DNA of 64,000 bases, taken from Desulfatiglandales bacterium. Lineage in GTDB: Bacteria; Desulfobacterota; DSM-4660; Desulfatiglandales; Desulfatiglandaceae. The notes under the pieces are model-generated. The model made no database searches. It was not told where the DNA came from and saw only the letters and a list, made by a program, of their open reading frames with translations. Positions within the stretch are counted from its first letter, which is position 1; the number at the start of each line of letters is the position of its first letter. A program made the translations under genes and the position numbers. Shown here in pieces: positions 8,705 to 55,391 of this stretch. The DNA lies in contig OY762721.1 in the NCBI GenBank assembly GCA_963666345.1, forward strand, positions 2,784,001 to 2,848,000, read 5' to 3'.

Positions 8705-10702
8705 ATGATCCCTCAAAGAGAGCTGTTCTGGAATATCCAGGGGGTTTGGATATTCTATCTTCTTGTATCTGTATCCATCCTTATATTCGCAGCCGGTATG
8801 CTGGCCCGTGTTCTGTCCTGGGCAAGGGGCGGAAGAGGACTGAAGTATTCCTTCAGCCTCAACTGCCTTTCAGACCTCCTGCTCGACGTCTTTCTGGGCA
8901 GGCGCATTTTCCGGAACGATCCCGGTGCAGGCACATCTCACCTTCTGGTCTTATGGGGATTTCTGGGTCTTTTTGCCGGCACCTCCATGCTGATGGTGGA
9001 TCACTATCTCTATCACTGCCTTACCGGGCTAAGCTACCTGCTATTTTCTTTCTTGATGGAGCTGTTCGGTCTGATGCTTATATCGGGCCTTTGCTGGGGA
9101 CTTGTCAGGAGGTTTATCTTTAAGATAGGCCGTCTGGAAAAAAGATGGGCGGATCTGGTTGTACCGTTATGGCTTTTGGTCGCGGCCTTGTCGGGATTTC
9201 TTTTAGAGGGCAGCCGGATGGCCGCCCAGGAGCCCGCCTGGGGTGGCTGGTCATTCGCAGGACTTCTGACAAGTTATTTGTGGGGCGGTCACGACGCGGC
9301 ACTTAGTTCATACAGAATAATCTGGTGGGCGCATGCCCTGGTGAGCCTCGGGTTGATCGCTGCCCTGCCTTTCACGAAATTATTTCACATGCTCGCCTCC
9401 CCAACGGCACTGTACATGTCGGCCCTGCCTGAGGAGGCCTTTTTGCCGGAACAGACAGTGAAGGCAGGGCAGGCCCTTTCAAAGCGCGCCCTTGTCTTTC
9501 TGGATGCCTGCACGCGTTGCGGCCGCTGCACTGAAGTGTGCCCGTCGGCAGCCTCGGGAGAGGATTTTTCACCCCGCCGGTTTCTCTTATCAGCCAGGAA
9601 AAGAGAGGCCGTGAATTACGGAACCCTTCCGGCCGCCTTTCTGTTCGGAAAAAGAGATGTCCCGGCTGAATCGGGAGAGTCCATTTACAACCGGATCTGG
9701 AACTGTACGACCTGCGGCGCCTGCGCGGATGCGTGCCCTGCAGGAATCTCCACAATCGAGGTAATAAACTGCATAAGGTCGGAGGCGATAGAAGACGGAA
9801 CGGATGTGCCGCAGCTTCTTGCAAAGACCCTTGAAAGTCTGACAAAACATGACAATCCCTGGGGGGCGCACAGGAAGAAACGCTTTGAGTGGTCACAGGG
9901 CCTGTCGGTTCCATCCATTTCTGGTGCGAACCCGCCTGACGGGTTGTGCTATTTTGCGGGCTGTACCACCTCATTTGATACGCGCGCCCAGATGATCGCG
10001 CGCTCATTCGTGTCTATCCTCGATCAGGCGGGGGTAAATTTTTTCTGTATCGGCAAGGATGAGCCATGCTGCGGTGACATAGCCAGGAGGGTTGGAGAAG
10101 AGGGCCTTTTCCAATTCCAGATGGAGAACTGTGTCGAATTGTTTGAAAGATGGGATATCAGGGATCTGGTGACATCTTCCCCTCACTGTTTTAATAGCTT
10201 TAAAAACGATTACCCCCTTTACATGAGCCGTGACGACTCTCAAAAGGCCGGTTCCTTCAGGGTACGTCACTATACCCAGCTGCTTAAAGAGCTGCTGGAG
10301 CAAGGTAAAATCAGGTTCGAAAGATCCATCCCAAGCAGGGTCACCTTTCATGACCCATGCTATCTTGGAAGATATAACAACCTGTTCGATGCGCCGCGTG
10401 AGATCATTTCCGCGATACCTGGGGTCGAGATGGTCGAAATGGAACATTACGGAGCAGACAGCCTTTGCTGCGGAGGCGGAGGGGGCAGGATGTGGCAGGA
10501 GGATATGACATGCAAGGTCACAATCTCAGAGCGGAGGATAGCAGAGGCGGATGCGGCAGGTGCACAAATGGTCATAACGGCCTGTCCCCTTTGTCTCATC
10601 ACGCTTGAAGATGCCGTAAAGACGGCAGGGCTTGAACAGACCCTGAGGGTTCTTGATCTGAATGAACTAATACTGCTGGCCATGGGCAAAAGGGAAAAAT
10701 AA
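8705..10702 (+). CDS. Membrane-bound Fe-S oxidoreductase (NarI-like TM domain + 2x4Fe-4S + two CCG domains; ETF:quinone oxidoreductase type)
   Basis: TM helices with His residues, CTRCGRCTEVCP, CTTCGACADACP, CCG, HDPCYLGR, CCGGGGG; directly upstream of etfBA. Confidence 0.85.
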   Translation: MIPQRELFWNIQGVWIFYLLVSVSILIFAAGMLARVLSWARGGRGLKYSFSLNCLSDLLLDVFLGRRIFRNDPGAGTSHLLVLWGFLGLFAGTSMLMVDHYLYHCLTGLSYLLFSFLMELFGLMLISGLCWGLVRRFIFKIGRLEKRWADLVVPLWLLVAALSGFLLEGSRMAAQEPAWGGWSFAGLLTSYLWGGHDAALSSYRIIWWAHALVSLGLIAALPFTKLFHMLASPTALYMSALPEEAFLPEQTVKAGQALSKRALVFLDACTRCGRCTEVCPSAASGEDFSPRRFLLSARKREAVNYGTLPAAFLFGKRDVPAESGESIYNRIWNCTTCGACADACPAGISTIEVINCIRSEAIEDGTDVPQLLAKTLESLTKHDNPWGAHRKKRFEWSQGLSVPSISGANPPDGLCYFAGCTTSFDTRAQMIARSFVSILDQAGVNFFCIGKDEPCCGDIARRVGEEGLFQFQMENCVELFERWDIRDLVTSSPHCFNSFKNDYPLYMSRDDSQKAGSFRVRHYTQLLKELLEQGKIRFERSIPSRVTFHDPCYLGRYNNLFDAPREIISAIPGVEMVEMEHYGADSLCCGGGGGRMWQEDMTCKVTISERRIAEADAAGAQMVITACPLCLITLEDAVKTAGLEQTLRVLDLNELILLAMGKREK

Positions 10703-10715
10703 AGGGGCGAATATT

Positions 10716-11510
10716 ATGACCGACACTATTGTTTGCATAAAACAGGTGGCCGAGGTTGAAGATGCGGATATCGTTTTAAACGACGATAAAACCGGAGTCC
10801 TCAAGGATGATCTGGTAATGGGCATTAACGAGTGGGACAGCTACGCACTTGAGGAGGCAATAAGGATAAAGGAGTCATCCGGAGGAAAGGTGGTTGCACT
10901 GAGCCTTGGGGACGAAGATTGTCAGGATATCCTCAGAAGGGCCCTTGCAATGGGCGCTGATGAGGTTGTCCATATAGACAAAAACGGTTTTGAGGGATCG
11001 GATGCCGTGGGTGTGGCAAGGGGGCTGGCATCGGTCATCGGAAAGCGCCACTTTGATCTTCTGCTTACCGGGGTGCAGGGCTCGGATGACGGATGGGGAC
11101 AGGTGGGGATAATCCTGGCGGAAATTCTTGATCTTCCATTTGCCTCCCTCGTTGTAAGGCTTGAAAATCATGAAGATCATCTCACCGTGTACCGGGAACT
11201 GGAGTCAAACACGCAGCAGATAGTGGAATTGCCCCTGCCGGGGGTCGTGACCATACAGACCGGCATTAACATCCCTCGCTATGTATCGATTATGGGAATA
11301 AGAAGGACCCGGAACCTTCCAATCGCTGGGACAGGGGCCGGGCAACTGGGGCTTATGAACTCGGAGATAGGGACCGAGGGGTCTTGTGTTGAGTCAAGAC
11401 AGCTCTTTATCCCGAGTGACGAGGCAAACGCGGAGATGCTGGAGGGGACCCTGAGCGAGGTCTGCGAAAAGGCCCTCAGTATAATAAGGGAAAAGGGGGG
11501 AACAGATTAG
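10716..11510 (+). CDS. etfB: Electron transfer flavoprotein beta subunit
   Basis: VCIKQV, NEWDSYALEEA, ALAMGAD, INIPRY. Confidence 0.93.
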   Translation: MTDTIVCIKQVAEVEDADIVLNDDKTGVLKDDLVMGINEWDSYALEEAIRIKESSGGKVVALSLGDEDCQDILRRALAMGADEVVHIDKNGFEGSDAVGVARGLASVIGKRHFDLLLTGVQGSDDGWGQVGIILAEILDLPFASLVVRLENHEDHLTVYRELESNTQQIVELPLPGVVTIQTGINIPRYVSIMGIRRTRNLPIAGTGAGQLGLMNSEIGTEGSCVESRQLFIPSDEANAEMLEGTLSEVCEKALSIIREKGGTD

Positions 11511-12482
11511 ATGAAAGACATACTTGTCCTTGCCGAGCATATGAGAGGCGGGTTGCGGGAGATAACCTATGAACTGCTTGATGCCGCGAATCAGCTGGCC
11601 GGGGAAAACGGTCTTTTGTCAACCGCGCTGCTGCTCTGCGGAAATGCCCAGGGGATGCCGGACGATCTTGGCCCCTTCTGCGATAAGGTGCTTGTCATGG
11701 AGCACCCTGAACTGGAAAACTACAATGCGGACCCCTATTGTAAAGCCCTTGAGCGGGTCATTTCTCTGAAAAGGCCTTTTCTCACCTTGATCGGTCATAC
11801 CGCAAACGGCATGGATCTCATCCCTTCCATTTCATACCGGCTCGGTATTCCGGCCGTGACCGATTGTCTGGAAATAGTGCTGAAAGGGGATAGGCTCGAA
11901 TGCATGAGACAGATATATGGAGGGAAAATCTTTGAGAGGATTCGTCTTAAAAATTCGGATCAATACATGCTGAGTCTAAGGCCGGGCGCTTCCGCAGGCA
12001 GGGGATTAGCAGGGAAGGAGGCTGAGCTTGAACATGTTCCGCCTCCCGACTGGGGTGGCCTCAGAGGCAGAAGGTTTATCTCCCTTTATGAGCCGGAGAT
12101 CGATGACGTGGATATATCAACGGCCGATGTTCTTGTCTCGGTGGGCCGCGGCATAGGAAAGCCTGAAAATATTGGGGTCGTAAAAGATCTTGTTGAAGCC
12201 CTGGGCGCTGTTCTTTCCTGTTCAAGGCCGGTTGCGGACAAGGGGTGGCTGCCCAAAAGCAGGCAGGTGGGGACATCCGGAAAGACAGTAAAACCGAAGG
12301 TATATGTCGCCCTCGGTATCAGCGGCGCATATCAGCATCAGGAAGGCATGAAAAATGCCGGAACCATCATCGCCGTTAACAAGGATCCACGGGCTCCGAT
12401 ATTCAAATTCGCCCACTACGGGATTGTTGCCGACATCATGAAAGCGGTCCCGCTGCTCAAGGAACTGCTGGATAAAAATTAG
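11511..12482 (+). CDS. etfA: Electron transfer flavoprotein alpha subunit
   Basis: SRPVAD, QVGTSGKTV, GISGAYQH, AVNKDP. Confidence 0.93.
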   Translation: MKDILVLAEHMRGGLREITYELLDAANQLAGENGLLSTALLLCGNAQGMPDDLGPFCDKVLVMEHPELENYNADPYCKALERVISLKRPFLTLIGHTANGMDLIPSISYRLGIPAVTDCLEIVLKGDRLECMRQIYGGKIFERIRLKNSDQYMLSLRPGASAGRGLAGKEAELEHVPPPDWGGLRGRRFISLYEPEIDDVDISTADVLVSVGRGIGKPENIGVVKDLVEALGAVLSCSRPVADKGWLPKSRQVGTSGKTVKPKVYVALGISGAYQHQEGMKNAGTIIAVNKDPRAPIFKFAHYGIVADIMKAVPLLKELLDKN

Positions 12483-12585
12483 CCGGAGGCGGGACCTTTT
12501 TCAATTTACAGAAAACCACCGTTAATCTATACTTTTTTAGGTTTCACTATTTACCCTTTTTATCCCTGCCAAGAGGAAATCTCCT

Positions 12586-15162
12586 ATGATACCTTTGACC
12601 AATCTCTTTAAATACTGGACTTTTCAGGTTTTTTCACCAGGGACGATTCTCAGGGAAAAGTATGAGGCCTTTAAGGCCCTGTTGAGGCATGATAAACGGG
12701 CCCATGAGCTCATGGCCGAGCTTGAGGAGATACATCACGACCGGATAAAGGTGGATTTCAGGGTAATCGAAGACAAGTATGCGGAGTTCGCCAGATCCGT
12801 GTCAGGGATGGTGGAGATGCTCTCAGTGATGCGACCCTCCCAGTATCTCAGCCTGAGAGACTATTTCAAGAAATTCGATTTCTATATCAAGTTTATGCTG
12901 GCCCCTCCGGACTATGACTTTGCTCCTCCCTTTTCAATGGGGCTAAAGGATATATCAGAAAAGGACAAAGATGTCGTGGGAGGCAAGGCCTATAACCTGT
13001 CGGCCATAGGCAGGGACCTCGATATTGCCGTCCCCAGAGGGTTTGTGGTAACGACCAATGCATTTTACTATTTCATCGAATATAACAACCTGAGAAGGCT
13101 GATAGATGACAGGCTCAAGGGCCTGGATATCTCCTCTTCCTCCTCCATTGATTCCGTCTCGAAAGAACTGAGTGAAGCGATCACGAGCGCCCGGATGCCT
13201 CCTGATATTGAAGTGGCGATATCGGAGTCTTTCCGTACTGTTTTTGGAAGTGAAAATGAGACCCTGGGTTTTGCCGTAAGAAGCAGTGCGGTAGGAGAGG
13301 ACGGCAAGGCATCATTTGCCGGTCAGTACAGGACCGTTTTAAACGTGAGTCATGACGGGATAGTGGATGCCTATAAAAAGGTAATCGCAAGCAAATATGG
13401 CCAGCAGGCCCTTTATTACAGAGTAAATTACGGACTGTCTGATCTTGAAACGCCCATGGCGGTGTTAGTCCTTGAAATGATAGAGGCGTCATCCAGCGGC
13501 GTTATCTACACCAGGGACTTTGAAGACCCTGAAACGAGTAACATTGTTATACATTCGATATGGGGTTTAGGAGAGCTCCTGGTAGGCGGAGACCTGTCAC
13601 CGGATATCATAAAGGTGAAAAAGGGTGAGAAACCGGAGATCAGGGAAAGAAACATAGGCAGCAAGCAATCGGTTATGCCCTATTCGGCGGACAATTCCAC
13701 CGAGATTTTCCAGCTTAATGAGCAATTACGTGGGGTCAGCTCCCTTGTCGATGCCTCAGCCCTGAAGCTGGGTGAATGGGGGAGTATCCTGGAAAAATAT
13801 TTCGGGGAGCCCCAGGATATAGAGTGGTGCGGTGACACAAAGGGTCATCTGTATATCGTCCAGTCAAGGCCTCTCAGATGGGAGGATGAAGGCGGGGATT
13901 CAATCCGTCAGGAACCGGTCGTCATAGAGGAGGCTCCGATCATCTCAGGCGGGGAAAGGGCCTCCGGCGGTGCCGGGGCAGGAAAGGTGTTCAAGATCGA
14001 ACAGGAATCCGATCTGCTTGACTTTCCTCAGGGCGGGGTGTTGGTGGCAAAAAACGCCTCCCCCACATATGTGAAGATCATGGACAGACTGAGTGCGGTT
14101 GTAACCGACACGGGCAGCAGGGCGGGTCATTTTTCCTCCGTGGCAAGGGAATTCGGTGTGCCGGCCCTGGTAAACATGAAGACGGCGACCGGGAGTCTTT
14201 CCCCGGGGCAGGAGGTTACGGTTGATGCGGATGTAAGGGCCGTATACAATGGAATTATCGAACCATTGATCGAGAAGGCCCGTTCCAGAAAAAATCTTAT
14301 CTCGGACAGCCCGTTTGCAAGAAAACTTGAATACATTATGAGTTTTATTTCACCTCTGAGGCTCGTTGATCCCCTCTCCGATATCTTCGTCCCTGAGGGA
14401 GTCAGGTCTCTGCACGATATATTGCGGTTCTGTCACGAGAAGGCAGTTGAGGTGATGTTCCACCTTGGCGACAGAAAGCTCGGGAGAAAGGGGGGGGCAA
14501 AAAAACTTGTTTCAGATATCCCCATGCTGTTTTATGTGCTTGACGTGGGAGAGGGAATAAGTGAAGGGGCCGCAACCGGTAACACGGTCAGGATCGAAGA
14601 CATCGTAAGCATACCCATGACGCAGGTCTTTAAGGGATTGAATCATCCGGATATCCACTGGTCTCATTTCACGCATTTTGACTGGGCCGAATATGACAGG
14701 ATCGTAATGAGCGGAGGTATCGTAAGCGCGGATTCCGCGATGTTTGCCAGCTATGCGGTGGTGTCTAAGGAATACTTCAACCTCAATCTGCGCTTCGGTT
14801 ATCATTTCGTGATCATAGACAGCATGTGCGGAGAAGATGCCTCTGGCAACTATATCCTCTTCAGATTCTCAGGCGGGGGGGCTGATATGGAAAAAAGGAC
14901 CTTGAGGGCGATGTTTCTAAAGGGGGTCCTGGAGAGACTCGGATTCGAGGTTGAAAAGAAATCGGATCTGATAGACGGTCAGCTGAACGGCAGGGAAAAA
15001 GATGAAATGGAACATATCCTTGACATTATAGGCAGGCTTCTGGGGGCAACGAGACTCATGGATATGTATCTGAAGGATATCGATATGGCAAAGGATTATG
15101 TGGATGAGTTCATGCAGGGAAGGTACCGCTTTGAATCGGTACAGGAGGATGCCGAGGGATGA
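12586..15162 (+). CDS. PEP-synthase/dikinase-like protein (ATP-grasp + swivel phospho-His domain + non-canonical C-terminal domain)
   Basis: GGKA, VRSSA..ED..SFAGQY, DIEW, QSRP; swivel GSRAGHFSSVAREFGVP; C-terminus lacks pyruvate-binding barrel motifs. Confidence 0.85.
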   Translation: MIPLTNLFKYWTFQVFSPGTILREKYEAFKALLRHDKRAHELMAELEEIHHDRIKVDFRVIEDKYAEFARSVSGMVEMLSVMRPSQYLSLRDYFKKFDFYIKFMLAPPDYDFAPPFSMGLKDISEKDKDVVGGKAYNLSAIGRDLDIAVPRGFVVTTNAFYYFIEYNNLRRLIDDRLKGLDISSSSSIDSVSKELSEAITSARMPPDIEVAISESFRTVFGSENETLGFAVRSSAVGEDGKASFAGQYRTVLNVSHDGIVDAYKKVIASKYGQQALYYRVNYGLSDLETPMAVLVLEMIEASSSGVIYTRDFEDPETSNIVIHSIWGLGELLVGGDLSPDIIKVKKGEKPEIRERNIGSKQSVMPYSADNSTEIFQLNEQLRGVSSLVDASALKLGEWGSILEKYFGEPQDIEWCGDTKGHLYIVQSRPLRWEDEGGDSIRQEPVVIEEAPIISGGERASGGAGAGKVFKIEQESDLLDFPQGGVLVAKNASPTYVKIMDRLSAVVTDTGSRAGHFSSVAREFGVPALVNMKTATGSLSPGQEVTVDADVRAVYNGIIEPLIEKARSRKNLISDSPFARKLEYIMSFISPLRLVDPLSDIFVPEGVRSLHDILRFCHEKAVEVMFHLGDRKLGRKGGAKKLVSDIPMLFYVLDVGEGISEGAATGNTVRIEDIVSIPMTQVFKGLNHPDIHWSHFTHFDWAEYDRIVMSGGIVSADSAMFASYAVVSKEYFNLNLRFGYHFVIIDSMCGEDASGNYILFRFSGGGADMEKRTLRAMFLKGVLERLGFEVEKKSDLIDGQLNGREKDEMEHILDIIGRLLGATRLMDMYLKDIDMAKDYVDEFMQGRYRFESVQEDAEG

Positions 15163-15239
15163 GGCGATCATAAGTTGTCAAAACTGATTTTGAAACCCGG
15201 TTATAAACATCAGCCTAATTCTGGGCATGAGAAAACAAT

Positions 15240-16322
15240 ATGTCAGGTTATGATCTTACATGGGTTACAAAGGATCTGGCTGTGGGTTATGCGCCGATGT
15301 CCTATGCCGACCTTGAGGATATAAGGGCAGAGGGTGTAGATGCCATAGTAAACCTCTGCGCCGAATTCTGCGACCTTCATGAAATTGAGGAAAAAAGCGG
15401 TTTTGAGGTCTATTATCTGCCCATACCGGATGAGTGCGCTCCCGATATGGAGGAGATAGAAAAGGCGCTTGACTGGCTTGACGAGGCCATCTATGTGGGC
15501 AAGAAAGTGCTTGTTCACTGCCGGTTCGGCATAGGCAGAACAGGTACGTTTGTCACTTCATATCTGATAAGAAAGGGGCTGGGCCTGAAGGTGGCTTCGA
15601 AAAGGCTGAAACATACCCGTTCAGCTCCGTCAAGCTACAGCCAGTGGAAACTCCTCAGGGCATATGGAAAAAAATCGGGCAGACTGAAGATAAGAGAGCC
15701 TTCTCTTGAAAGCAACAATGTAGTTGATCTGGGGGATTATTTTTCAGAATATGAGGCCCTTGTAAAAAAGATCGAAGAGGAGATAAAGGGTTTCGAAGAT
15801 TCAAACGGTGCATTTCAAAGATGCGGTCTGGACAGGGATGATTGCTGTTACAGATACTTCGAACTTCCGTTCATAGAAGTCATATACATACACAACAAGA
15901 TGAACCGCGCCCTTACGAGCGGGCAGCGCAAACTGCTTATCCAGAGGACGGTTGAGGTCAGAAAAAAGGCCAGGTCACTCAGGGGCCGTATAACCTACAA
16001 AGGGGATGATCCTTTAAAGAGAAAGTTGGCGAAAAACATTGTCTACGGCCAGGAAAAGATCCTTTGTCCTCTCAGCAGGGATTCCAGGTGTACACTTTTT
16101 GAATTCAGGCCTATAGGTTGCAGGCTGCACGGTCTGAAAGAGGGAGTGGTTGACAGAATGGAGGTGAAAAAGACCCTCTTTGAGATTTCAAGGCATGTCT
16201 TTTTTGCCTTCTGCGGGGTATTCCTGGAAGAGGGGACTTTCAATTTTACACCGGCGGATACTGTTTCGGGCCGCTTTATACAGAAATATTTTTATTATCT
16301 CGCCTCTATCGCTGAAGATTAA
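15240..16322 (+). CDS. Dual-specificity protein phosphatase fused to a YkgJ/CxxCxxCC-like cysteine-cluster domain
   Basis: PIPD loop and VHCRFGIGRTG P-loop; C-terminal CG..DDCC...CPLS..RCTLFEFRPIGCR. Confidence 0.8.
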   Translation: MSGYDLTWVTKDLAVGYAPMSYADLEDIRAEGVDAIVNLCAEFCDLHEIEEKSGFEVYYLPIPDECAPDMEEIEKALDWLDEAIYVGKKVLVHCRFGIGRTGTFVTSYLIRKGLGLKVASKRLKHTRSAPSSYSQWKLLRAYGKKSGRLKIREPSLESNNVVDLGDYFSEYEALVKKIEEEIKGFEDSNGAFQRCGLDRDDCCYRYFELPFIEVIYIHNKMNRALTSGQRKLLIQRTVEVRKKARSLRGRITYKGDDPLKRKLAKNIVYGQEKILCPLSRDSRCTLFEFRPIGCRLHGLKEGVVDRMEVKKTLFEISRHVFFAFCGVFLEEGTFNFTPADTVSGRFIQKYFYYLASIAED

Positions 16323-16464
16323 AGGCCTTGTGAAAGGTCCAGTTGCCGTTCAAGTGGTTCACGGCATTTGAGCCTTTTACTGTAAGGGGTGAATTCTGAA
16401 TTCTATGGATGCGCAAGGATCGGACGGGTGTATTACTCCTGCAGGCCTTTAATTTATCCCGCAA

Positions 16465-16836
16465 TTATTGTCGCGTGTTATTTCCAAGTACCTTTTCGAC
16501 CTTTTCTTCAAGCTCATCCTTGTCGATCGGTTTCACACAGTAATCCACGGCACCAAGTTTTTGGGATTCCCTTGCCGTTTCAAGAGTCGGATAACCGGTA
16601 AGCATAAGTGCCTTGGTAGCGGGTGAGGCCTTTCTGATCTCTTCCAGCACCTCGATGCCCGTCATTTTTTTCAGCTTTATATCCAGTATGGCAAGATCCG
16701 GTTTGTTTGATTTTACATAATCGAGGGCCTCTTCCTCCTCGGTGAACGCTATGACTTCGTAGCCCTTCTTTTCCAATATCTTCTTTACAAGTATCCCTGC
16801 ATCCATTACATCATCAAGCACAATTACCTTGGACAT
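16465..16836 (-). CDS. Single-domain response regulator
   Basis: LDD, ILDIKL phospho-acceptor, MLTG, VKP. Confidence 0.93.
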   Translation of the reverse strand: MSKVIVLDDVMDAGILVKKILEKKGYEVIAFTEEEEALDYVKSNKPDLAILDIKLKKMTGIEVLEEIRKASPATKALMLTGYPTLETARESQKLGAVDYCVKPIDKDELEEKVEKVLGNNTRQ

Positions 16837-16839
16837 ATA

Positions 16840-18009
16840 CTACTCCTTGGGGGTGTTTTCCGGGTTCTCATCAGAAAAGGGAAGCCTTATGATAAAAAGG
16901 GTTCCTTTTGCCTCAAGATCCTCTTCTCCTCCCCTTGACCATGGAGGACTCTGAACTTCGATCCTTCCGCCTAATTCCTGTATTATGCTGAATGAAACCG
17001 ACAGGCCCAGACCGGTACCGCTGCCTACCGATTTGGTGGTAAAGAAGGGGTCAAAAATTCGATCAAGAATGTCGGGAGATATCCCAGCTCCCGTATCTGA
17101 TACGCTGATTTCAACCTCTTTATTATCCCTTCTTATTTCGGTCCCTACGGTTATGGCGCCTTTCCCGTCAATGGCATCCCGCGCGTTGCTCAAAAGATTC
17201 ATGAGGACCTGTTTCAATTTGTCCCTGTCAGCCCTTATAAAAATCTCCTCACGGCTGTAGCGCTTTTTTACGACAACGTTTTCCTGATCAAACAGGTGCT
17301 CAACAACGGAAACCACCTCTTCTATCGTCTGATTGAGATCTATCAGGGCGAGATTGCTCTCGGTCTGGCGGGAAAATCTGAGCAGGTCCGCAACAATCTT
17401 TCTGCAGATCTTGGCCTGATTTTCAATAACCTCAAGCCCCTCGTATATCGTGTCCCTTTTCCCGGCTTCTTCCTTAAGAAGCTGTGAATAACCGAGTATG
17501 ATACCCAGAGGCGTGTTTATTTCATGCGCAATACCGGCCGCAAGCGGTCCCATGGATTCCAGCTTCTGCAACTGTACGAGTCTGGATTTAAGGAGTTTGA
17601 ATTCAGTGATGTCTCTCAGCCGCCATAAGACTGCCGCCGCGCCCTCTTTGGTTTCATAAACAGGCCTTCCGAGAATATGCCACGATCTTTTATTGCCGGA
17701 GATTTCGAGTTCTTCTTCATCCTCTGCGGGCAGGCCGGTATCTAAAACCTTTCTGCTTTCTCTTTCAACCTTTTCAGCGAGCTTTTCCGGTATAAGCTTC
17801 TCCAGTGTCTTATCAAGGGCATCTTCCCGTTGTATGGAAAAAAAACCGCGGAAGGCCTCATTTGCATATCTACAGGATAACTGCTTATCAAGTATCAAAA
17901 AAAGATCATCAGAGTCATTGAGCAGGCTCCCTAAAAGCGGATCTTTTTTTTCAATCCCGGTAAAGGGGTTTTTATCCCCTTTTGTCATTTTTACCTTCTG
18001 ATCTTTCAT
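16840..18009 (-). CDS. Cytoplasmic PAS-domain sensor histidine kinase (NtrB-like)
   Basis: AGIAHEINTPL H-box, NLLSNARDA, DTGAGI, FFTTK, GTGLGL; start placed at ATG 18009 (AAGGA RBS) because the longer ORF runs through a repeat. Confidence 0.88.
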   Translation of the reverse strand: MKDQKVKMTKGDKNPFTGIEKKDPLLGSLLNDSDDLFLILDKQLSCRYANEAFRGFFSIQREDALDKTLEKLIPEKLAEKVERESRKVLDTGLPAEDEEELEISGNKRSWHILGRPVYETKEGAAAVLWRLRDITEFKLLKSRLVQLQKLESMGPLAAGIAHEINTPLGIILGYSQLLKEEAGKRDTIYEGLEVIENQAKICRKIVADLLRFSRQTESNLALIDLNQTIEEVVSVVEHLFDQENVVVKKRYSREEIFIRADRDKLKQVLMNLLSNARDAIDGKGAITVGTEIRRDNKEVEISVSDTGAGISPDILDRIFDPFFTTKSVGSGTGLGLSVSFSIIQELGGRIEVQSPPWSRGGEEDLEAKGTLFIIRLPFSDENPENTPKE

Positions 18010-18064
18010 GGTCCTTATGATAAAGGCGCGATAAGACTCTGTTCGGTAAAACGGCCTTTTTAAT

Positions 18065-18150
18065 GATGGCGGCTTCGTAAAAAGACCGGTTGCCACGCCA
18101 TGGCGGGATAATTTCCGCCATGGCGTGGCAAATTTTTTCAAGAATGCATC
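18065..18150. repeat. REP/MITE-like element with a perfect 17-bp hairpin
   Basis: ttgccacgccatggcgg-N8-ccgccatggcgtggcaa at 18090-18131; flanks resemble the ends of the 20226-20376 element. Confidence 0.6.
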
Positions 18151-18604
18151 AAAAGTAGTTTCCAGAGGATATGTCATTACGATTTATCCATCAAGAAAAT
18201 TTGCCTTTTTAATGGCTTAATCGAATCGGCCTGTTATCCTTTTTTGCTTGAAATCTTAAATGTATTATTTATATATTTCATTAAATAATCAATCTCAAAT
18301 CATGAAAATTGTTTCAGGAACCTCAACCTAGAGCGAAGACCTTGCCTTGATATTTATTCGGTGTCTCTGTCTCAAGGGAGGGCCGCAGTCAAAATGAGAC
18401 GGCGCCCATCCGGAAACCGAATCAAGGGCACTGATAAGTTTCCGGATGGAAACGAGATGAGACGCGAGTTGCGTTTGTTTCATTATTGAAAACCCGGTTG
18501 TATGAGCCGGACCGGGGAAAATGGTACGACTTCTTTGTTTTGGGGGCTCAAAAGCCCGGCACCTTTTACTTGACCGGGCGATTACAGGCATATGATAAGG
18601 TCGG

Positions 18605-19477
18605 GTGAATCTGTTGACCGATAAAAAAGCCGTTTTAGGACCTGATAAAGAAAGGTACACTGCCAATCGCATAATCCGTGGCGATCAGGCCTCGGTGCCC
18701 CTGAATGCGGCGATCGTAGGCGGCGGGAAGGCTTGCTACAACCTTTTGAATATACTTGATAAAGATCGCCTTTCCGTGCTCAATATGAAGATCCTCGGGG
18801 TGGCTGACGTTGATTCGGAGGCGCCCGGTCTTGCGTACGCACGTGAGATGGGCCTTTTTACCACTTCCGATTTTGAAGAACTCTTCGGACTGGAGGGCCT
18901 TAATCTGCTGATAGAGCTTACCGGGTCGACAAAGATAAGGGAAGCCCTGATACGCAAGAAACCTATAGAGATATCCTCCATAGACCATCGAGGGGCCAGG
19001 CTTCTGTGGGATCTAATACAGATAGAGATCGAAAAGACCGAACTCCAGAAGGAACGACTCAGGGCCGAAAAGAAGAGAAAGGATCACATCCAGGTGATAC
19101 TGGATTCTCTCCCCTATCGCATCATGGTGGTAAATCTCGATATGACCATTGATACGGTTAACAGGACCTTCCTGCAGGGATTCGGGTTCAAGAGAAGTGA
19201 AGTGATAGGGGAAAAGTGCCACCAAATAAGATACGGAAAAAGCAGCCCTTGCAGCGAAACAGGCACTGCATGTATCCTGCAACATGGTATTGAGGAATTA
19301 AAAAGGCAGGGGCTTTTCAGCACTATGAAGGAGTATAGGGACAGGGAGGGAAAGACAAGATTCGACGTTATTACCATTGCACCTATCTTTGATGATGATG
19401 GTAATATCGTTCAGATCCTGGAGACATCAAGGGATGTCACGGGAAGGATCAAGACCATGACCGGGACCGGTCAATAA
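18605..19477 (+). CDS. Rossmann-like (GGGK) domain + PAS protein with no output domain
   Basis: AAIVGGGKAC..ILGVAD N-terminus, coiled linker, PAS/PAC (ILDSLP..VN..GEKCH..SRDVT), stop right after the PAC; start uncertain. Confidence 0.75.
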   Translation: MNLLTDKKAVLGPDKERYTANRIIRGDQASVPLNAAIVGGGKACYNLLNILDKDRLSVLNMKILGVADVDSEAPGLAYAREMGLFTTSDFEELFGLEGLNLLIELTGSTKIREALIRKKPIEISSIDHRGARLLWDLIQIEIEKTELQKERLRAEKKRKDHIQVILDSLPYRIMVVNLDMTIDTVNRTFLQGFGFKRSEVIGEKCHQIRYGKSSPCSETGTACILQHGIEELKRQGLFSTMKEYRDREGKTRFDVITIAPIFDDDGNIVQILETSRDVTGRIKTMTGTGQ

Positions 19478-19628
19478 CGGAAACTTGATTCGTTTTAGCC
19501 TTAATACCATGCAGTTTGCCGAAGGGGGGTGTATTCCGGAAAGGGGGTGAAAAGGGTTTAAATCGTAAGGTCTTCTGTTTTCTTCACAATCTTATCCTGT
19601 ATTAAAAATTGAACTAGGAGAGTTGAAA

Positions 19629-20204
19629 ATGAAAAAGATACTGCTTTTTTCTTTTGCTTTGATTTTTGCGTTAAGCGGGATTTCTCTTGCAGGCACGGAC
19701 TACAAATACCCTGTTAAGGCTTGCCATGACGGCGGTGACATCACCCCGGCCAAGGCCCATGAAATGGTTTCAAAGGATCAGGCTCATACCTTCATAGTTG
19801 ATTGCAGGACAAGGGCTGAGTATGAATTCGTGGGTCATCCTGAGGGCGCTTATAATATCCCTCTTCAATTTTTGACCAACAAACTGGGGAAAAAGGGCTA
19901 TGACAAGGTAGCAAACGAAAACTTCGGAAAGGATCTTCTTTCCCGTTTCAACCCGAAGACCGATACCCTTATCTTTATGTGCCGGAGCGGTAAAAGAAGT
20001 TGCATGAGCTGTTGCGAGGCCGCAAAGGCAGGGTTTTCAGCCGACAAGCTCTTTAATATGATGGGCGGATTTGAAGGAGACAAGGTTTCATATAAAGGAA
20101 GCGCCTATCATGGTAAGAGAAAGGTCGGGGGATGGCGAAATGAAGGCCTTCCCTGGAGTTACCATATGGATGCAAAGCTTGCCTATCAACCGGCTGCAAA
20201 ATAG
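19629..20204 (+). CDS. Secreted rhodanese-domain sulfurtransferase
   Basis: Sec-type signal peptide; DCRTRAEY..GHP.GA.NIP, CRSGKR active site, GGFEG, GWRNEGLPW. Confidence 0.88.
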   Translation: MKKILLFSFALIFALSGISLAGTDYKYPVKACHDGGDITPAKAHEMVSKDQAHTFIVDCRTRAEYEFVGHPEGAYNIPLQFLTNKLGKKGYDKVANENFGKDLLSRFNPKTDTLIFMCRSGKRSCMSCCEAAKAGFSADKLFNMMGGFEGDKVSYKGSAYHGKRKVGGWRNEGLPWSYHMDAKLAYQPAAK

Positions 20205-20225
20205 ACGCACCCTGTAATCATTTTT

Positions 20226-20376
20226 GATGCATTCGCAAAAAGTCAAAATTGAGACGGCACAGTAGAAAGTTCAAATGCAAGGCTTGCAAATCTTGAGGAA
20301 TGAGGAGTACATATAGTACGCCGCAATGATGAAAGATGAAGCATAACGCAGCAGTTGGACTTTCTACTGTGCCGTC
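20226..20376. repeat. MITE/REP-like repeat with 22-bp terminal inverted repeats
   Basis: gacggcacagtagaaagttcaa (from 20253) and ttggactttctactgtgccgtc (to 20376), 1 mismatch; extra end-like copy gatgcattcgcaaaaagtc at 20226. Confidence 0.8.
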
Positions 20377-20625
20377 ATTTTTGAAAGGTCTGTTATCTCT
20401 GCGATGGCGGGCCTTTCAATTTTTCATGATCTCCTTGTCTTCTTCAAGCGCCCCTCAAGCCGGCCGCTTTTTCCGCCGTAATGTCTTCGCAGATTTAAAC
20501 GGTAAATCCTCAGCCCGTTAGCCCCGGATCCGCATAAAGGCCTATGATCAGATTTCAGATAATTTAGGTCCGTCTGAGGTTGAACCTGCCTTAAACCCGT
20601 TGACATGAAGTGACCTTTCGGCTAA

Positions 20626-21960
<1,335 letters not shown>

Positions 21961-28159: not shown

Positions 28160-28459
28160 GCTGCTTCAAAAGCAGTTGATTCTTACACGCATCCAAACCA
28201 ATTTTTGAGTCTTTCTTATTCTATTGACCGGCGATTTTCCGAAATGGAAGAGATGCTTTGCCATCCCGGAAGTTGACTTAAGGATAATGTCTAAGGAAGG
28301 CTTCTGGTTAGACCCTCAATATCTCCGCCTTAAGATAGATCGGGGCCTCAGTAGTTTTTTTTATTTTCGTGTTTAAGATTTCATCTTGAAAATTTCTTTT
28401 CAAAATGCAATTCATTGATCCTGTGATCTTTATGTGAGCCGATGCCCCAATACAGCAAA

Positions 28460-28975
28460 ATGGACTTAAAAACATATCTGGAACAAAATAGTGAAGCCAT
28501 TGTAAAAAAGTGGCGTGATGCGGTCGTTGATTCCTACCCAGGCGATTCTCGAAGGTTTTTGAGAAAGGAAAAGGATCAATTCGCAAATCCGGTCGGGCAT
28601 ATAATTACCAAGGACCTTGAAAGCCTGGTAAAAAGTCTGTCAGGGGATGAAACAATAGAAAACGCCTCCTTATGCCTTGAAAATATAATAAGGGTGAGAG
28701 CGGTTCAGGATTTCAAGCCTTCCGATGCGGTTGGATTTGTCATGGCCTTGAAGAGGATACTGAGGGAGTCCTTAAGGGAAAAAGGCATGGGTCAAGGAGA
28801 TGATTCCGAGATCCGTAAAGTCGAGGAAAGTATAGACCGGATGGCCCTTTTGGCTTTTGATATCTATTCGCAGTGCCGTCAGAAGATATTCGATATCCGC
28901 GTGAAGGAGGTCAAAAACCAGCTGGGAAAATTGCTGGAGCGTTCCAATTTGACATTTGAAATCCCCGAGGATTAG
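28460..28975 (+). CDS. dsrT: DsrT (RsbRD N-terminal-like domain protein)
   Basis: KDQFANPVG, IIRVRAVQDFKPS, AFDIY..CR motifs; position directly upstream of dsrM. Confidence 0.85.
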   Translation: MDLKTYLEQNSEAIVKKWRDAVVDSYPGDSRRFLRKEKDQFANPVGHIITKDLESLVKSLSGDETIENASLCLENIIRVRAVQDFKPSDAVGFVMALKRILRESLREKGMGQGDDSEIRKVEESIDRMALLAFDIYSQCRQKIFDIRVKEVKNQLGKLLERSNLTFEIPED

Positions 28976-29029
28976 ATTTTTTAAGGGGTGACAACAAAGA
29001 CAGTGCTATTTTAAGAGAGGTAGTGGTTT

Positions 29030-30103
29030 ATGAATTTCATACTGGGCATCCTCATTTCAGGCTTTGCAGTTACCTTGGTAGTCTTGATTCCATGGATCGG
29101 AGTGGCTGCTTTTGATCTGCGCACCTTTTTTGGGATCATAATACCTTATGTCGCCATGGCGACTTTTTTTATCGGGATAATCTACAGGGTTGTGGGGTGG
29201 GCCAGGTCTCCCGTGCCTTTCAGGATACCAACTACCGCAGGCCAGCAGTGGTCCTTCCCATGGATCAAGCCAAATCCGATTGACAACCCGAAAGGCGGGG
29301 GCGCCGCCCTGGTCAGGATGGTTTTTGAGGTACTCACTTTCAGGTCTCTATTCAGAAACACCAGACTGGAGTATCGAAGGGACGATGACGGGACACCCAG
29401 GGTCAACTACGAGTGGGAACTCTGGTTGTGGATTTCCGCGCTTGCCTTTCACTATTCGTTTTTTGTGATTTTTGTGAGGCATTTCAGGTTTTTCACCGAA
29501 CCTGTGCCATGGTTTGTTCATCTTCTGGAGAACCTCGACGGTTTCATGCAGCTCGGCTCTCTTCCCCTAAACGGTCTAGGGGTCCCTGGCATATACCTTA
29601 CGGACGGAATTCTGCTGGCTGCGGTGACATACCTTTTTGTAAGAAGGATCTATGTCGCTCAGACACGTTATATCTCTCTGCCTGCGGATTATTTCCCGCT
29701 TTTTCTGATACTGGCCCTCGGGTTGAGCGGGGTATTGATGAGATATTTTATCAGGGTGGATATCACCGCGGTAAAGGAACTGGCAGTCGGCCTCTTTAAA
29801 TTTAGCCCAAAGGCGCCTGAAGGAATAGGCGTGATATTTTATATCCATCTGTTTATAATAAGCGTCCTTATCGCATATTTTCCGTTCAGCAAACTTATGC
29901 ACTTCGCGGGAGTTTTCCTAAGTCCTACCAGAAATCTTGCCAATAACAACCGTTTTGTAAGACATTCAAATCCCTGGGATTATCCTGTTGAAACGCATAC
30001 CTATGAGGAATATGAGGATGAATTCAGGGGCCCCATGGTTGAGGCGGGCCTGCCCGTTGAAAAAGGGCTTGAGTCAACAGAAGAAAACGGAGAAAAGGAG
30101 TAG
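29030..30103 (+). CDS. dsrM: DsrM membrane cytochrome b
   Basis: SPVPFRIPTTAGQQ, FPFSKLMH, SPTRNLANN. Confidence 0.93.
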   Translation: MNFILGILISGFAVTLVVLIPWIGVAAFDLRTFFGIIIPYVAMATFFIGIIYRVVGWARSPVPFRIPTTAGQQWSFPWIKPNPIDNPKGGGAALVRMVFEVLTFRSLFRNTRLEYRRDDDGTPRVNYEWELWLWISALAFHYSFFVIFVRHFRFFTEPVPWFVHLLENLDGFMQLGSLPLNGLGVPGIYLTDGILLAAVTYLFVRRIYVAQTRYISLPADYFPLFLILALGLSGVLMRYFIRVDITAVKELAVGLFKFSPKAPEGIGVIFYIHLFIISVLIAYFPFSKLMHFAGVFLSPTRNLANNNRFVRHSNPWDYPVETHTYEEYEDEFRGPMVEAGLPVEKGLESTEENGEKE

Positions 30104-30105
30104 AA

Positions 30106-31734
30106 ATGGCAGATACACCGAAACCGGAAGAGACCGCCAAGATTGATCATTCCACTCCTCTTGGAAGGGGTTGGATGGAGACACCGGCGGAAATCAAACC
30201 GGGTATTTATTGCTATGCCTCGAAGCCTAAGAGCCTTGATTATGTGGGTATGCCAAACCCCAGGGAATGGAATCCCCTTGAGGAAGACTGGAAGCTGCCG
30301 GAGGATTGGGAAGAGACGATTCATAAAGGATTTGAGGACCGGCTGGGTAAGTTTCGCACCCTGAAGCTTTTCATGGATATTTGTGTGCGTTGCGGGGCCT
30401 GTGCCGATAAGTGCCACTTTTTTATAGGTTCCGGTGACCCAAAGAATATGCCTGTGCTGAGGGCGGAGCTGATAAGGTCGGTCTACAGGAAAAAGTTCAC
30501 CGCCAGCGGAAAACTCCTCGGGAAGTTGGCAGGTGCCAGGGATCTCACGGAGGATGTGCTCAAGGAATGGTGGTATTACCTTTATCAGTGTACGGAATGC
30601 CGGAGGTGCTCTCTATTCTGCCCTTACGGCATCGACACGGCGGAGGTCACCATCCTGGGGAGGGAGCTTACCAACCTTATAGGACTGAATACCGACTGGA
30701 TCGCGGCACCTGTTGCAAACTGCTACCGTACAGGTAATCATCTGGGCATACAGCCTCATGCCTACAAGGATATGCTTGACTTTTTTACCGATGAGATAGA
30801 GGACATCACAGGCCTGAGGATGGAGCCGGATTTTAACAGAAAGGGAGCTGAGATCCTTTTTATAACGCCGTCCGGCGATGTATTTGCCGACCCGGGTACA
30901 TATACCTGCATGGGCTATATGATGCTTTTCTATTATCTCAAGAGCATGGGCCTTGATATAACCTGGAGCACCTACGCTTCAGAGGGGGGGAATTTCGGAT
31001 ATTTCACTTCCCATGAAATGGCCAAAAGGCTGAATGCGAAGATGTATGCCGAGGCCAAAAGACTCGGGGTAAAATGGATACTGGGGGGTGAGTGCGGCCA
31101 CATGTGGAGGGTTATAAACCAGTATATGGATACCTTTAACGGGCCGGCCGAATTTCTTGAAGAGCCCGTTTCTCCGATCACGGGAACCAAGTTCGAAAAT
31201 GCATCACAAACCAAGATGGTCCATATCATTGAATTTACCGCCGATCTGATCAAAAACAACAAACTGAAGCTGGACCCAAGCAGAAATGACCATCTGAAGG
31301 TGACGTTTCACGATTCCTGCAACCCGGCAAGGGGGATGGGGATATTGGAAGAACCGAGATACGTGATCAAAAACGTCTGTAATAATTTCTACGAGATGCC
31401 GATAAACACGATAAGGGAGCAGACCTTCTGCTGCGGCAGCGGTGCCGGACTCAACGCCGGGGAAAATCTGGAACTGCGGATGAGAGGAGGGCTTCCCAGG
31501 GCCAATGCCGTAAAATATGTCCATGAGAAACATGGCGTTAACATGTTGTCCTGCATATGCGCCATTGACAGGGCCGTGTTCCCCAACCTTATGGAATACT
31601 GGGTCCCGGAGGTTGACGTCACAGGTGTCCACGAAATGGTCGGCAATGCCCTCGTATTTGAGGGGGAAAAGAAAAGGACTACCGATCTGAGAGGCGAAAC
31701 CCTTCCTGGAATGGAGGATGAAGAAGATGTATGA
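30106..31734 (+). CDS. dsrK: DsrK (HdrD-like Fe-S/CCG catalytic subunit)
   Basis: CVRCGACADKCH, CTECRRCSLFCP, GECGHMWR, HDSCN, CCGSG. Confidence 0.95.
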   Translation: MADTPKPEETAKIDHSTPLGRGWMETPAEIKPGIYCYASKPKSLDYVGMPNPREWNPLEEDWKLPEDWEETIHKGFEDRLGKFRTLKLFMDICVRCGACADKCHFFIGSGDPKNMPVLRAELIRSVYRKKFTASGKLLGKLAGARDLTEDVLKEWWYYLYQCTECRRCSLFCPYGIDTAEVTILGRELTNLIGLNTDWIAAPVANCYRTGNHLGIQPHAYKDMLDFFTDEIEDITGLRMEPDFNRKGAEILFITPSGDVFADPGTYTCMGYMMLFYYLKSMGLDITWSTYASEGGNFGYFTSHEMAKRLNAKMYAEAKRLGVKWILGGECGHMWRVINQYMDTFNGPAEFLEEPVSPITGTKFENASQTKMVHIIEFTADLIKNNKLKLDPSRNDHLKVTFHDSCNPARGMGILEEPRYVIKNVCNNFYEMPINTIREQTFCCGSGAGLNAGENLELRMRGGLPRANAVKYVHEKHGVNMLSCICAIDRAVFPNLMEYWVPEVDVTGVHEMVGNALVFEGEKKRTTDLRGETLPGMEDEEDV

Positions 31735-32200
31735 TGGAGGTAAGATTGTTGCCGGGCTCGTGATAGGAGTGGGCCTGCTGATGTTCCCTTTCTTCTACAA
31801 TGCGGGAAGGGCAGCCAAGGCGCCCGATCCCGTGCTTACGCCGAAGGCCAAAGAGGCCAAGGAATGCGTTGCCCCTACTCCCTATATGAAGGCCTACCAC
31901 ATGCAGCTTCTGGATGAATGGCGACACGAGGTCGTTCGTGATGGCGAAAGGTATTATACGACCGGGAAGAGGGGGGATAAGAGATTCGACAGAAAGCTGA
32001 TGGATATGGGCAGGCATTTCGCGGCCGGTGTGGGCGAGGATGATCAGATCGAAAGCGGCAAGGTATATTATAAAAGCCTTCAGGTGACATGCCTTGACTG
32101 CCATTCCAACAAGTCCAAGTTCTGCGATCAGTGCCACAATTATATGGGTGTCGCGCCCTATTGTTGGGATTGCCATATCGAGCCGAAGGAGAAAGAATAA
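31727..32200 (+). CDS. dsrJ: DsrJ triheme cytochrome c
   Basis: HMQLLDEWR; CLDCH, CDQCH, CWDCH; start 31727 or 31718. Confidence 0.93.
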   Translation: MYDGGKIVAGLVIGVGLLMFPFFYNAGRAAKAPDPVLTPKAKEAKECVAPTPYMKAYHMQLLDEWRHEVVRDGERYYTTGKRGDKRFDRKLMDMGRHFAAGVGEDDQIESGKVYYKSLQVTCLDCHSNKSKFCDQCHNYMGVAPYCWDCHIEPKEKE

Positions 32201-32994: not shown

Positions 32995-33001
32995 GGTTGT
33001 T

Positions 33002-34667: not shown

Positions 34668-35084
34668 CTATTTCTTGTTTCTCTTGTGACAGAAGTTGCA
34701 GGAGCCCATCTTTTTGTCCATTTTTCCCGCCTTTACCAGATCGCGGTGGCATTTCCTGCAATTGTCATGGTATGCATCCTCAAGACCGCCTTTTTTCAGT
34801 TCCGCCTTGTGGCATTCGTTGCATTTTTTGACCTGATCACACTCCTTCCAGATATTTTTGCCATCCTTGTATTCGTGGTGGCATTCGGTGCATCCGATCT
34901 TGTATTCTTCGCTGTGTTTCTTGTGATGAAAATCGGCAGGCCCGAACTTGTCATTCTCGTATCCGGGGTTTTCTATCACAATCTCTTCAGGCACCTCGGC
35001 TGCTGTAAGGGCTCCAACCGTCAGAAACATGACACAGGCAAAAGATGCCGCGGCTAAGGTTATAAACTTTTTCCTGATAGGCAT
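34668..35084 (-). CDS. Tetraheme cytochrome c3 (class III)
   Basis: Signal peptide, FHHKKH, four CxxCH motifs (CTECHH, CNECH, CRKCH, CNFCH). Confidence 0.92.
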   Translation of the reverse strand: MPIRKKFITLAAASFACVMFLTVGALTAAEVPEEIVIENPGYENDKFGPADFHHKKHSEEYKIGCTECHHEYKDGKNIWKECDQVKKCNECHKAELKKGGLEDAYHDNCRKCHRDLVKAGKMDKKMGSCNFCHKRNKK

Positions 35085-39910: not shown

Positions 39911-39937
39911 TGATTTTATATTAAAATGAGGGGCCTA

Positions 39938-40420: not shown

Positions 40421-40500
40421 TATTTAGAAGGGGTATGAGCGGCCTCTTCGTTGACAAACTATCCGGAACATGATTTTCAGATCGGGGTTGAATCAGATAA

Positions 40501-55298: not shown

Positions 55299-55391
55299 AT
55301 GTAGGCGGTGAGGTTAACCCTCAGATATTTCAAGCAGGAATGCGCAGGATCAGCTGAATGAAACCCAATTAATGTCGAGGAGATATACGAT

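Follow-up and report, generated by a model that had tools for sequence, protein, structure and literature searches.

Swivel-histidine dikinases form a small class of enzymes in which every newly found acceptor has led into new biology, from gluconeogenesis and starch turnover to rifampicin resistance and prodigiosin synthesis. Phenylphosphate synthase and PigC are re-targeted members of the class that act on small molecules. Rifampin phosphotransferase (RPH) turns the ATP-grasp and swivel-His machinery to an acceptor other than pyruvate by means of a dedicated substrate-binding domain (PMC4844700). In the system of glucan water dikinase (GWD) with SEX4, LSF2 or laforin, one and the same phosphomonoester is written by a dikinase and erased by a dual-specificity phosphatase (PMC13666283). 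Here, we analyzed a 64,000-nt stretch of DNA, hereafter the window, from a Desulfatiglandales bacterium (GCA_963666345.1, contig OY762721.1, positions 2,784,001–2,848,000 of the forward strand). It encodes a dikinase-like protein of 858 aa, for which we use the working name DIK, followed by a dual-specificity phosphatase gene whose 360-aa product is called DSP.

A sequence-only reading of the window had grouped five adjacent genes, encoding DIK, DSP, a response regulator (RR), a histidine kinase (HK) and a stand-alone PAS protein, into a candidate phospho-signaling module. All five open reading frames (ORFs) are present where it had placed them and carry the domains it had named, as judged from the ORF listing and the Pfam and NCBIfam scans that form the basis of all gene and domain calls in the window. 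Our results show that the module, once the PAS protein is set aside, is real, conserved across sulfate-reducing bacteria and undescribed, and it is probably a phosphorylation switch.

Results

DIK joins dikinase loading machinery to a novel C-terminal domain

DIK (12586–15162, + strand) begins with an N-terminal extension (residues 1 to ~115; 12586–12930, + strand), continues with an ATP-grasp domain (PPDK_N, PF01326; residues 129–435, E = 1.4e-83 in Pfam) and a PEP-utilizers mobile domain (PF00391; residues 480–549, E = 2.1e-18), and ends in a novel C-terminal domain. The catalytic residue of the mobile domain, His515 (codon 14128–14130, motif GSRAGHF), aligned with the catalytic His of the solved phosphoenolpyruvate (PEP) synthase 8a8e (E = 4.5e-62); the ATP-grasp unit and swivel His previously recognized by motif are thus both in place. 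A column was called conserved when at least 85% conserved in a 72-member full-length DIK alignment. Across these 72 members, G132, K134, R232, S233, S234, E238, E413, Q426, R428 and H515 are invariant, and the window copy keeps 124 of the 127 conserved columns, deviating at V425, V606 and Q680. Residue 606 (14401–14403) is Val in the window copy and Cys in 65 of the 72 members, where it lies in the motif PEGCRSLHD.

The match to PEP synthase (PpsA) is confined to the first two domains. DIK scored 342.5 bits (E = 4.6e-102) against the PEP synthase model NF005057 and 333 bits against TIGR01418, below the respective cut-offs of 598 and 739.75, and the alignment to the PEP synthase NCBIfam models covered only positions 10–474 of 798. 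Alignments to solved PEP synthases stop by query residue 568, and the PEP/pyruvate barrel (PF02896) gave no Pfam match even at E ≤ 10. Moreover, the Thr that PpsA carries two residues before its catalytic His is an Ala in DIK. The RPH model NF041857 returned 224.2 bits against a cut-off of 999, and the matches of the RPH, PigC and RedH NCBIfam models (200–224 bits) are limited to the ATP-grasp and His parts of DIK. For Enzyme I of the phosphotransferase system (PTS), TIGR01417 gave 23.3 bits (cut-off 341.7), and neither PF05524 nor PF02896 was found by Pfam. Pfam scans of the whole protein and of its two ends found no carbohydrate-binding module. By its scores and domain content, DIK lacks defining features of PpsA, RPH, GWD and Enzyme I, and we are confident that it is no PpsA and that it has a new acceptor module.

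The novel domain (residues ~560–858; 14263–15159, + strand) is marked by the motifs HDILRFCHE, RFGYHF, FRFSGGGA and GRLLGATRLMDM. Residues 560–858 matched no Pfam family at E ≤ 10, and an 18-sequence profile found nothing among PDB sequences (best E 0.1). An AF2 model built from an 18-sequence alignment (pLDDT 74.8, pTM 0.73, residues ~80–290 confident) has a mixed α+β fold that is not an eightfold β/α barrel. Foldseek comparison of this model with the PDB gave no match at E ≤ 0.001; the best matches, to YbjN-like proteins and the type-III chaperone SycE, were weak (TM 0.19–0.24), and a YbjN-family cluster was the sole outside structural neighbor in an ESM Atlas search (TM 0.36). We treat the resemblance of the modeled fold to YbjN and SycE as a weak lead only. 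Profile searches and structure prediction therefore agree with the sequence-only reading that the C-terminus lacks a pyruvate-binding TIM barrel; the size given there for this part, ~260 aa, has to be corrected to about 290–300 aa of non-homologous sequence. The C-terminal part holds 51 conserved columns, a number equal to that of the ATP-grasp domain, and H610, D611, R614, H617, E618, H740, G763, G764, R774 and D826 are invariant in the 72-member alignment.

A word-indexed search with the C-domain returned 963 clusters at 90% identity, and all 120 that were listed carry both PF01326 and PF00391. An exhaustive HMMER search returned 1164 representatives at 50% identity (889 at E ≤ 1e-10), in which the domain nearly always occupies positions ~550–850 of an 820–870-aa protein. 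Species-representative genomes were also scanned with a 7-sequence C-domain alignment, and at least 589 of at least 613 candidate stretches were confirmed. The relatives are named ‘hypothetical protein’, ‘PEP/pyruvate-binding domain-containing protein’ or ‘pyruvate, water dikinase’ by their sources. Taken together, these searches indicate that the C-domain is a real, conserved and large unnamed family.

Two stand-alone proteins of ~390 aa, P0269 and P0310, match residues 4–105 and 568–847 of DIK (P0001) and nothing between. A search with P0269 gave ten clusters at 90% identity, 383–433 aa long and with no Pfam domain, one of them (P0394) from cultured Dissulfurimicrobium hydrothermale. The stand-alone set (P0269, P0310 and P0392–P0400) lacks the ATP-grasp and His domains. 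The existence of such proteins argues that the N-terminal ~105 residues and the C-terminal domain are one module, here called the N+C module, and the ATP-grasp and His unit looks inserted into, or fused with, this autonomous module. The extra N-terminus that had been noticed in DIK is thus real and conserved; its 115 residues had no match among PDB sequences.

A phosphatase gene follows DIK and is sometimes fused to it

DSP (15240–16322, + strand) consists of a phosphatase domain (residues 8–147) fused to a Cys-rich domain. The phosphatase domain matched DSPc at 51.3 bits (cut-off 33.5) and has the signature HCRFGIGR with Cys94, which upholds the call of a CX5R phosphatase directly after DIK. 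Its nearest solved relatives are archaeal protein-tyrosine phosphatases and DUSP23. In an alignment of 44 orthologues, D64, H93, C94, G97, G99 and R100 are invariant (His93-Cys94-X5-Arg100 and Asp64). In the C-terminal 200 residues, C276, C294, R290 and P291 are invariant as well and C203 and C284 at least 90% conserved; the Cys clusters of the window copy begin at residues 195 and 276. The CxxCxxCC family PF03692 was matched by 27 of the 44 orthologues at E ≤ 1 (best 5.3e-5) and by the window copy not at all at E ≤ 10, and some JGI records call relatives of DSP ‘protein-tyrosine phosphatase/Fe-S-cluster containining protein’. The C-terminal 180 residues had no match among PDB sequences, and Pfam found no carbohydrate-binding module in the window DSP.

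Related loci were taken from the scan of species-representative genomes. The best 80 of the at least 589 confirmed stretches, nearly all labeled Desulfobacterales or Desulfobulbales, were analyzed, and their neighboring genes were scored by tblastn with the window proteins and by ORF clustering. DSP lies within 500 nt 3′ of DIK on the same strand in 71 of the 76 loci that have at least 600 nt of downstream sequence. Where at least 1500 nt are available (69 loci), it is directly 3′ of DIK in 66, and the full form with the Cys-rich domain is found in 58. The median distance from the DIK stop to the DSP start is 22 nt (n = 72). Furthermore, among 13 long DIK representatives (>1000 aa), P0283 (1252 aa) and P0312 (1205 aa) are fusions of DIK to an entire DSP plus Cys-rich protein (phmmer against DSP, P0002: 1.4e-102 and 5.6e-99, respectively). 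Conservation and gene order suggest that DSP is an active-looking Cys phosphatase and an obligate neighbor of DIK that is sometimes fused to it, and it is likely that the two act antagonistically on one acceptor. The natural fusions and the short gap add to the case for the writer-eraser pair proposed from the sequence, and support that reading in part.

The other 11 long representatives (P0339, P0344, P0350, P0356, P0359, P0360, P0368, P0372, P0377, P0386 and P0389; 1023–1072 aa) carry an extra C-terminal extension of ~200 aa. The three extensions that were scanned matched ConA/LamG-like lectin families; one of them hit Glyco_hydro_59_C at 30.1 bits, and the matches of the others, including 3keto-disac_hyd, were weaker.

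A two-component system accompanies the DIK–DSP pair

Converging on DIK and DSP, as the sequence-only reading had described, are the genes for a response regulator of 123 aa that is a receiver domain alone (16465–16836, − strand) and a histidine kinase of 445 aa (16840–18177, − strand; PAS-HisKA-HATPase_c, H-box His218). The receiver has Asp8, Asp9, Asp52 (16681–16683), Thr80 and Lys102, all invariant in an alignment of 39 regulators with a mean column identity of 65%. Its matches in the related loci are bimodal: 46 (in 46 of the 80 loci) lie at 51–72% identity and 33, from paralogous receivers, at 24–38%, with none between. In the fully flanked set, that is, loci with at least 7900 nt downstream (n = 44), an orthologous regulator was found in 31 and the kinase in 28. 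Of 29 loci of at least 15 kb, 26 have one or more clustered two-component genes, and 15 have DIK, DSP, RR and HK together. We infer from their adjacency alone that kinase and regulator are a cognate pair.

The typical layout in Desulfobacterales is DIK> DSP> RR< HK(~670 aa)< PhnD-like<, and that in Desulfobulbales is DIK> DSP> sigma54-RR> u165 (a small membrane protein)> HK> RR>; no PhnD-like partner gene occurs in the 64-kb window. The two layouts differ in order yet keep the regulator, which shows that the linkage survives rearrangement. A DIK tree of 72 rows, from which 9 rows below 780 aa were omitted, separates Desulfobulbales from Desulfobacterales clades with an SH-aLRT of 99, and this split by order argues that the cluster is old and vertically kept. 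In two loci, L059 (352–8843) and L063 (352–8828), the order RR> Mo-enzyme> FeS> (u145) TauE> u206> DIK>, with the regulator first, DIK last and neither DSP nor kinase, suggests one operon; its Mo-enzyme is PhsA-like, and u206 is a membrane protein.

Among other window proteins, EtfA, EtfB, the HdrD-like protein, SAM hydroxide adenosyltransferase, rhodanese, PurA and MnmG had tblastn matches in none of the 80 loci, so the conserved gene set is specific, and the recurrence of the arrangement in related loci goes far beyond chance. In these related loci, the linkage to signaling genes that the sequence-only reading had made a test of its proposal thus holds for phosphatase, regulator and kinase. 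By conservation of neighborhood, a two-component system is a companion of the DIK–DSP unit.

We found no sigma-54 promoter upstream of DIK in the window and one weak match in 64 upstream regions. Only seven strong intergenic sigma-54 matches occur across the loci, upstream of u165, c20, c16, PyrRedox and TauE, and the near-absence of matches 5′ of DIK gives no support for a sigma-54 regulator driving it. A sigma-70-like match (TTTACA-17-TATACT, 10/12; a consensus match alone) lies at 12505–12533 (+ strand), in the 103-nt gap 5′ of DIK.

One or more genes of sulfur-oxyanion type (PhsA-like molybdoenzyme, FeS subunit, GltD-like flavoprotein and TauE permease) occur in 23 of the 80 loci. The PhsA-like molybdoenzyme scored 518 bits, below the cut-off of 694, with a match that starts at model position 41; the FeS subunit is TtrB/DmsB-like, the flavoprotein GltD-like, and there is a weak similarity (32 bits) between the PhnD-like protein and the sensor domain of TtrS. 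These neighbors are hints of sulfur-oxyanion physiology, and none of the genes is in the window. A PtsI gene lies 5′ of DIK in 4 of the 80 loci. In three Desulfobulbaceae loci (L044 5271–6281, L052 and L056), a gene of the AIRS/PurM superfamily, which includes SelD, ThiL and HypE, sits between the PTS Enzyme I gene and DIK.

Other features of the window

The PAS protein (290 aa; 18605–19477, + strand; PAS domain at residues 158–284) adjoins the module. We reject it as a member, contrary to the sequence-only reading, since it is in no conserved ORF cluster and has only 11 weak matches in the 80 loci (26–33% identity), all to PAS parts of kinases. Its residues ~1–150 (18605–19090) contain a GGGK motif and gave NAD-binding-type matches, all sub-threshold (NAD_binding_3, E 0.18; an acetaldehyde dehydrogenase model, E 0.0093); this half could act as a small sensor of redox state or of nucleotides. 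In the first ~30 codons of the kinase gene lies an inverted repeat (18090–18131; 19-bp stem with G-T pairs allowed, 4-nt loop) that scored terminator-like on both strands. Homology to kinase orthologues begins only at about residue 75–103, so the true start of the kinase may lie further downstream. No riboswitch or other RNA element was found by Rfam in 12000–20700 (E ≤ 0.1). A defense system was considered and rejected: DIK, DSP, HK, the PAS protein and a 114-aa ORF matched no PADLOC family, and the receiver gave generic weak matches only.

Two EtfB/EtfA pairs lie within 8705–12482 and 54504–56372. The first lies behind the gene of a membrane FeS/CCG (HdrD-like) oxidoreductase, with 103 nt between its end and DIK; the linkage to DIK recurs in none of the 80 loci, and EtfAB and the HdrD-like gene were rejected as parts of the module. 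Further along (28442–34156, + strand), an RsbRD_N-domain protein precedes genes that read as a DsrMKJOP-like redox complex of the membrane (NarI-like, FeS, Fer4_11 and NrfD), and a class III cytochrome c gene follows at 34671–35084 (− strand). A flavoprotein of 1406 aa with several Pyr_redox/FAD modules and ferredoxin domains (35223–39440, − strand) is divergent from genes for a small FeS protein and a CCG-domain protein (39926–41373). An ORF of 1570 aa (41426–46135, − strand) has no Pfam match at E ≤ 1e-5 and lies in the lowest-GC part of the window (0.41–0.45).

Discussion

A proposed phosphorylation and dephosphorylation unit

We somewhat favor the view that DIK is an ATP-driven swivel-His phosphotransferase which, with an eraser phosphatase, acts on a non-pyruvate acceptor and is coupled to a two-component system. 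Domain content, retained catalytic residues, the absent barrel, family size, synteny and gene fusion are observed; the catalysis itself, one substrate shared by both enzymes, the role of the regulator and the nature of the acceptor we infer. The core would be a two-gene unit, DIK plus DSP. The ATP-grasp domain of DIK would load His515 from ATP with release of AMP and Pi, as in dikinase chemistry; the mobile His domain would then swing to an acceptor site on the N+C module (N-terminal ~105 and C-terminal ~290 residues) and pass the phosphoryl group to an acceptor other than pyruvate, in the simplest case a hydroxyl group. DSP, with its HCX5R motif, would take the phosphate off again. Its putative CxxCxxCC domain probably binds a metal or Fe-S center, which may make the eraser redox- or metal-responsive. 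The phosphorylated regulator, having no output domain, might dock on DIK or DSP and set the balance between writing and erasing; alternatively, this single-domain regulator could itself be the acceptor.

It is possible, and we hold this tentatively, that a protein belonging to the two-component branch serves as the acceptor or as a direct partner. The most specific version of this idea, which we regard as unlikely, is that DIK is the first swivel-His dikinase to act as a protein kinase, O-phosphorylating a protein of its own branch, most plausibly the regulator or its partner, with DSP as a redox- or metal-sensing eraser.

Several observations weigh against the main proposal, a DIK–DSP unit coupled to a two-component system. 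DSP is missing from five of the 76 loci (L040, L057, L059, L063 and L066), and a short DSP without the Cys-rich domain occurs in 12 loci, of which only two (L007 and L008) have the regulator by ORF clustering. In the DIK tree, the short forms fall in one subclade and four of the DSP-less loci in another, so both look like secondary changes. No regulator orthologue was found in 13 of the 44 fully flanked loci. The window copies themselves deviate: the kinase aligns to residues ~309–670 of its ~670-aa orthologues and thus lacks the sensor, membrane and HAMP half, and DIK lacks the near-invariant Cys606, a loss that might have consequences if this residue has a catalytic or redox function. The 51 conserved columns of the C-module, rich in His, Asp, Arg and Glu, suggest the pocket of an enzyme more than a surface for docking, and the sulfur-oxyanion-type genes hint at a metabolic role. 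Two-component genes abound in these genomes, and the linkage could thus be due to nothing more than co-regulation. Every characterized swivel-His dikinase known to us acts on a small molecule or a glycan and not on a protein side chain. Our literature search, whose coverage leaves out subscription journals and unindexed papers, found no description of the family and no biochemical or genetic data for any member.

Alternative explanations

The strongest alternative, which we nevertheless consider rather improbable, is a metabolic pair: DIK would phosphorylate a small metabolite with a possible tie to the metabolism of sulfur or selenium oxyanions, DSP would hydrolyze the product or a later intermediate, and the two-component system would act in transcription only. 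RPH (PMC4844700) phosphorylates a small molecule, as do phenylphosphate synthase and PigC. The conserved columns of the C-module are largely polar, DIK ends an apparent operon of sulfur-oxyanion type in L059 and L063, a PurM/SelD-like gene adjoins it in three loci, and a rhodanese gene lies at 19623–20204 in the window. On the other side, a kinase-phosphatase fusion such as P0283 or P0312 working on one metabolite would burn ATP in a futile cycle unless it were under tight control. The metabolic neighbors differ by locus, with none in the window, and the best-conserved partner after DSP is a single-domain regulator, which could not by itself control transcription; nor do the upstream regions of DIK offer a sigma-54 promoter beyond the single weak match.

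Self-regulation seems less probable still. Here the substrate of DSP would be DIK, phosphorylated on Ser/Thr or His, as in the control of PpsA and PPDK by PSRP and PDRP. Tight adjacency and natural fusion would suit an enzyme and its regulator, and Ser511, four residues before His515, is at least 85% conserved; the Thr of the PpsA T-x-H motif, which has a regulatory role, is replaced by Ala, so that a regulated DIK would need a different mechanism. Nevertheless, we know of no Cys-based dual-specificity phosphatase that acts on phospho-His, nothing points to phosphorylation of DIK anywhere other than at His515, and this explanation accounts for neither the acceptor of DIK nor the role of the regulator.

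A dikinase and a phosphatase working on glycogen or another polysaccharide, as a bacterial counterpart of plant GWD with SEX4 or laforin, would have its exact precedent in starch and glycogen. It gains something from the lectin-type matches of the three scanned extensions, and also from the phosphate that E. coli glycogen contains to some extent, even though no laforin and no machinery for phosphorylating glucans is known in prokaryotes (PMC13666283); we judge it very improbable. ConA-like domains bind proteins too, however, and Pfam found no carbohydrate-binding module in the DIK or DSP of the window. Nor are glycogen or polysaccharide genes among the conserved neighbors, and the domain order is unlike that of GWD.

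Finally, a divergent gluconeogenic PEP synthase with coincidental neighbors, suggested by the top named models and solved structures and by the label ‘pyruvate, water dikinase’ on some relatives, can be practically dismissed, since the match extends over the first two domains only with scores far under curated cut-offs, the PEP/pyruvate barrel is absent by sequence and predicted fold, and synteny with, and fusion to, a phosphatase are conserved.

Significance

For these bacteria, which matter in the environment, metabolic reconstructions that rely on the current ‘pyruvate, water dikinase’ labels may wrongly count DIK as a gluconeogenic PpsA. The acceptor module of the family has neither a name nor a relative of solved structure, and with it come a dedicated phosphatase and a conserved two-component partner. 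A protein acceptor, if confirmed, would make DIK a new kind of protein kinase, and the protein-kinase version of our proposal would add a second, energy-charge-linked layer atop the His-Asp two-component system in sulfate-reducing and sulfur-disproportionating Desulfobacterota. Should the acceptor instead be a metabolite or a glycan, anaerobes would turn out to have a phosphorylated intermediate or a modification of a polymer that is new. With a defined gene pair and natural fusions at hand, the question of the acceptor is directly testable in vitro.

Comparison with known systems

DIK shares with PpsA an ATP-grasp PPDK_N domain followed by a swivel phospho-His domain, in the same order. By contrast, the C-terminal PEP/pyruvate TIM barrel of PpsA is replaced by an unrelated α+β domain, and DIK has in addition a conserved N-terminal extension and a conserved phosphatase partner. 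PTS Enzyme I also has a swivel-His domain and hands its phosphate to a protein, HPr; it is, however, loaded from PEP via a TIM barrel and contains PF05524, whereas DIK has an ATP-grasp and neither of these parts.

RPH and its relatives PigC and RedH resemble DIK in turning dikinase machinery to a non-pyruvate acceptor. In RPH, the substrate domain lies in the middle and the His domain at the C-terminus, whereas the His domain of DIK is central. We know of no partner phosphatase for RPH, PigC or RedH.

GWD with SEX4, LSF2 or laforin is the only well-known pairing of a swivel-His dikinase with a dual-specificity phosphatase, and in this it resembles DIK and DSP. That system is eukaryotic or plastidial, its domain order is unlike that of DIK, it has no two-component partners, and both of its enzymes have carbohydrate-binding modules, which the scans found in neither DIK nor DSP. 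Lastly, PSRP/PDRP, HprK/P and bifunctional histidine kinases have folds unrelated to those of DIK and DSP; what they share with the proposed unit is logic only, in that opposing activities are kept together or fused and an effector sets the balance.

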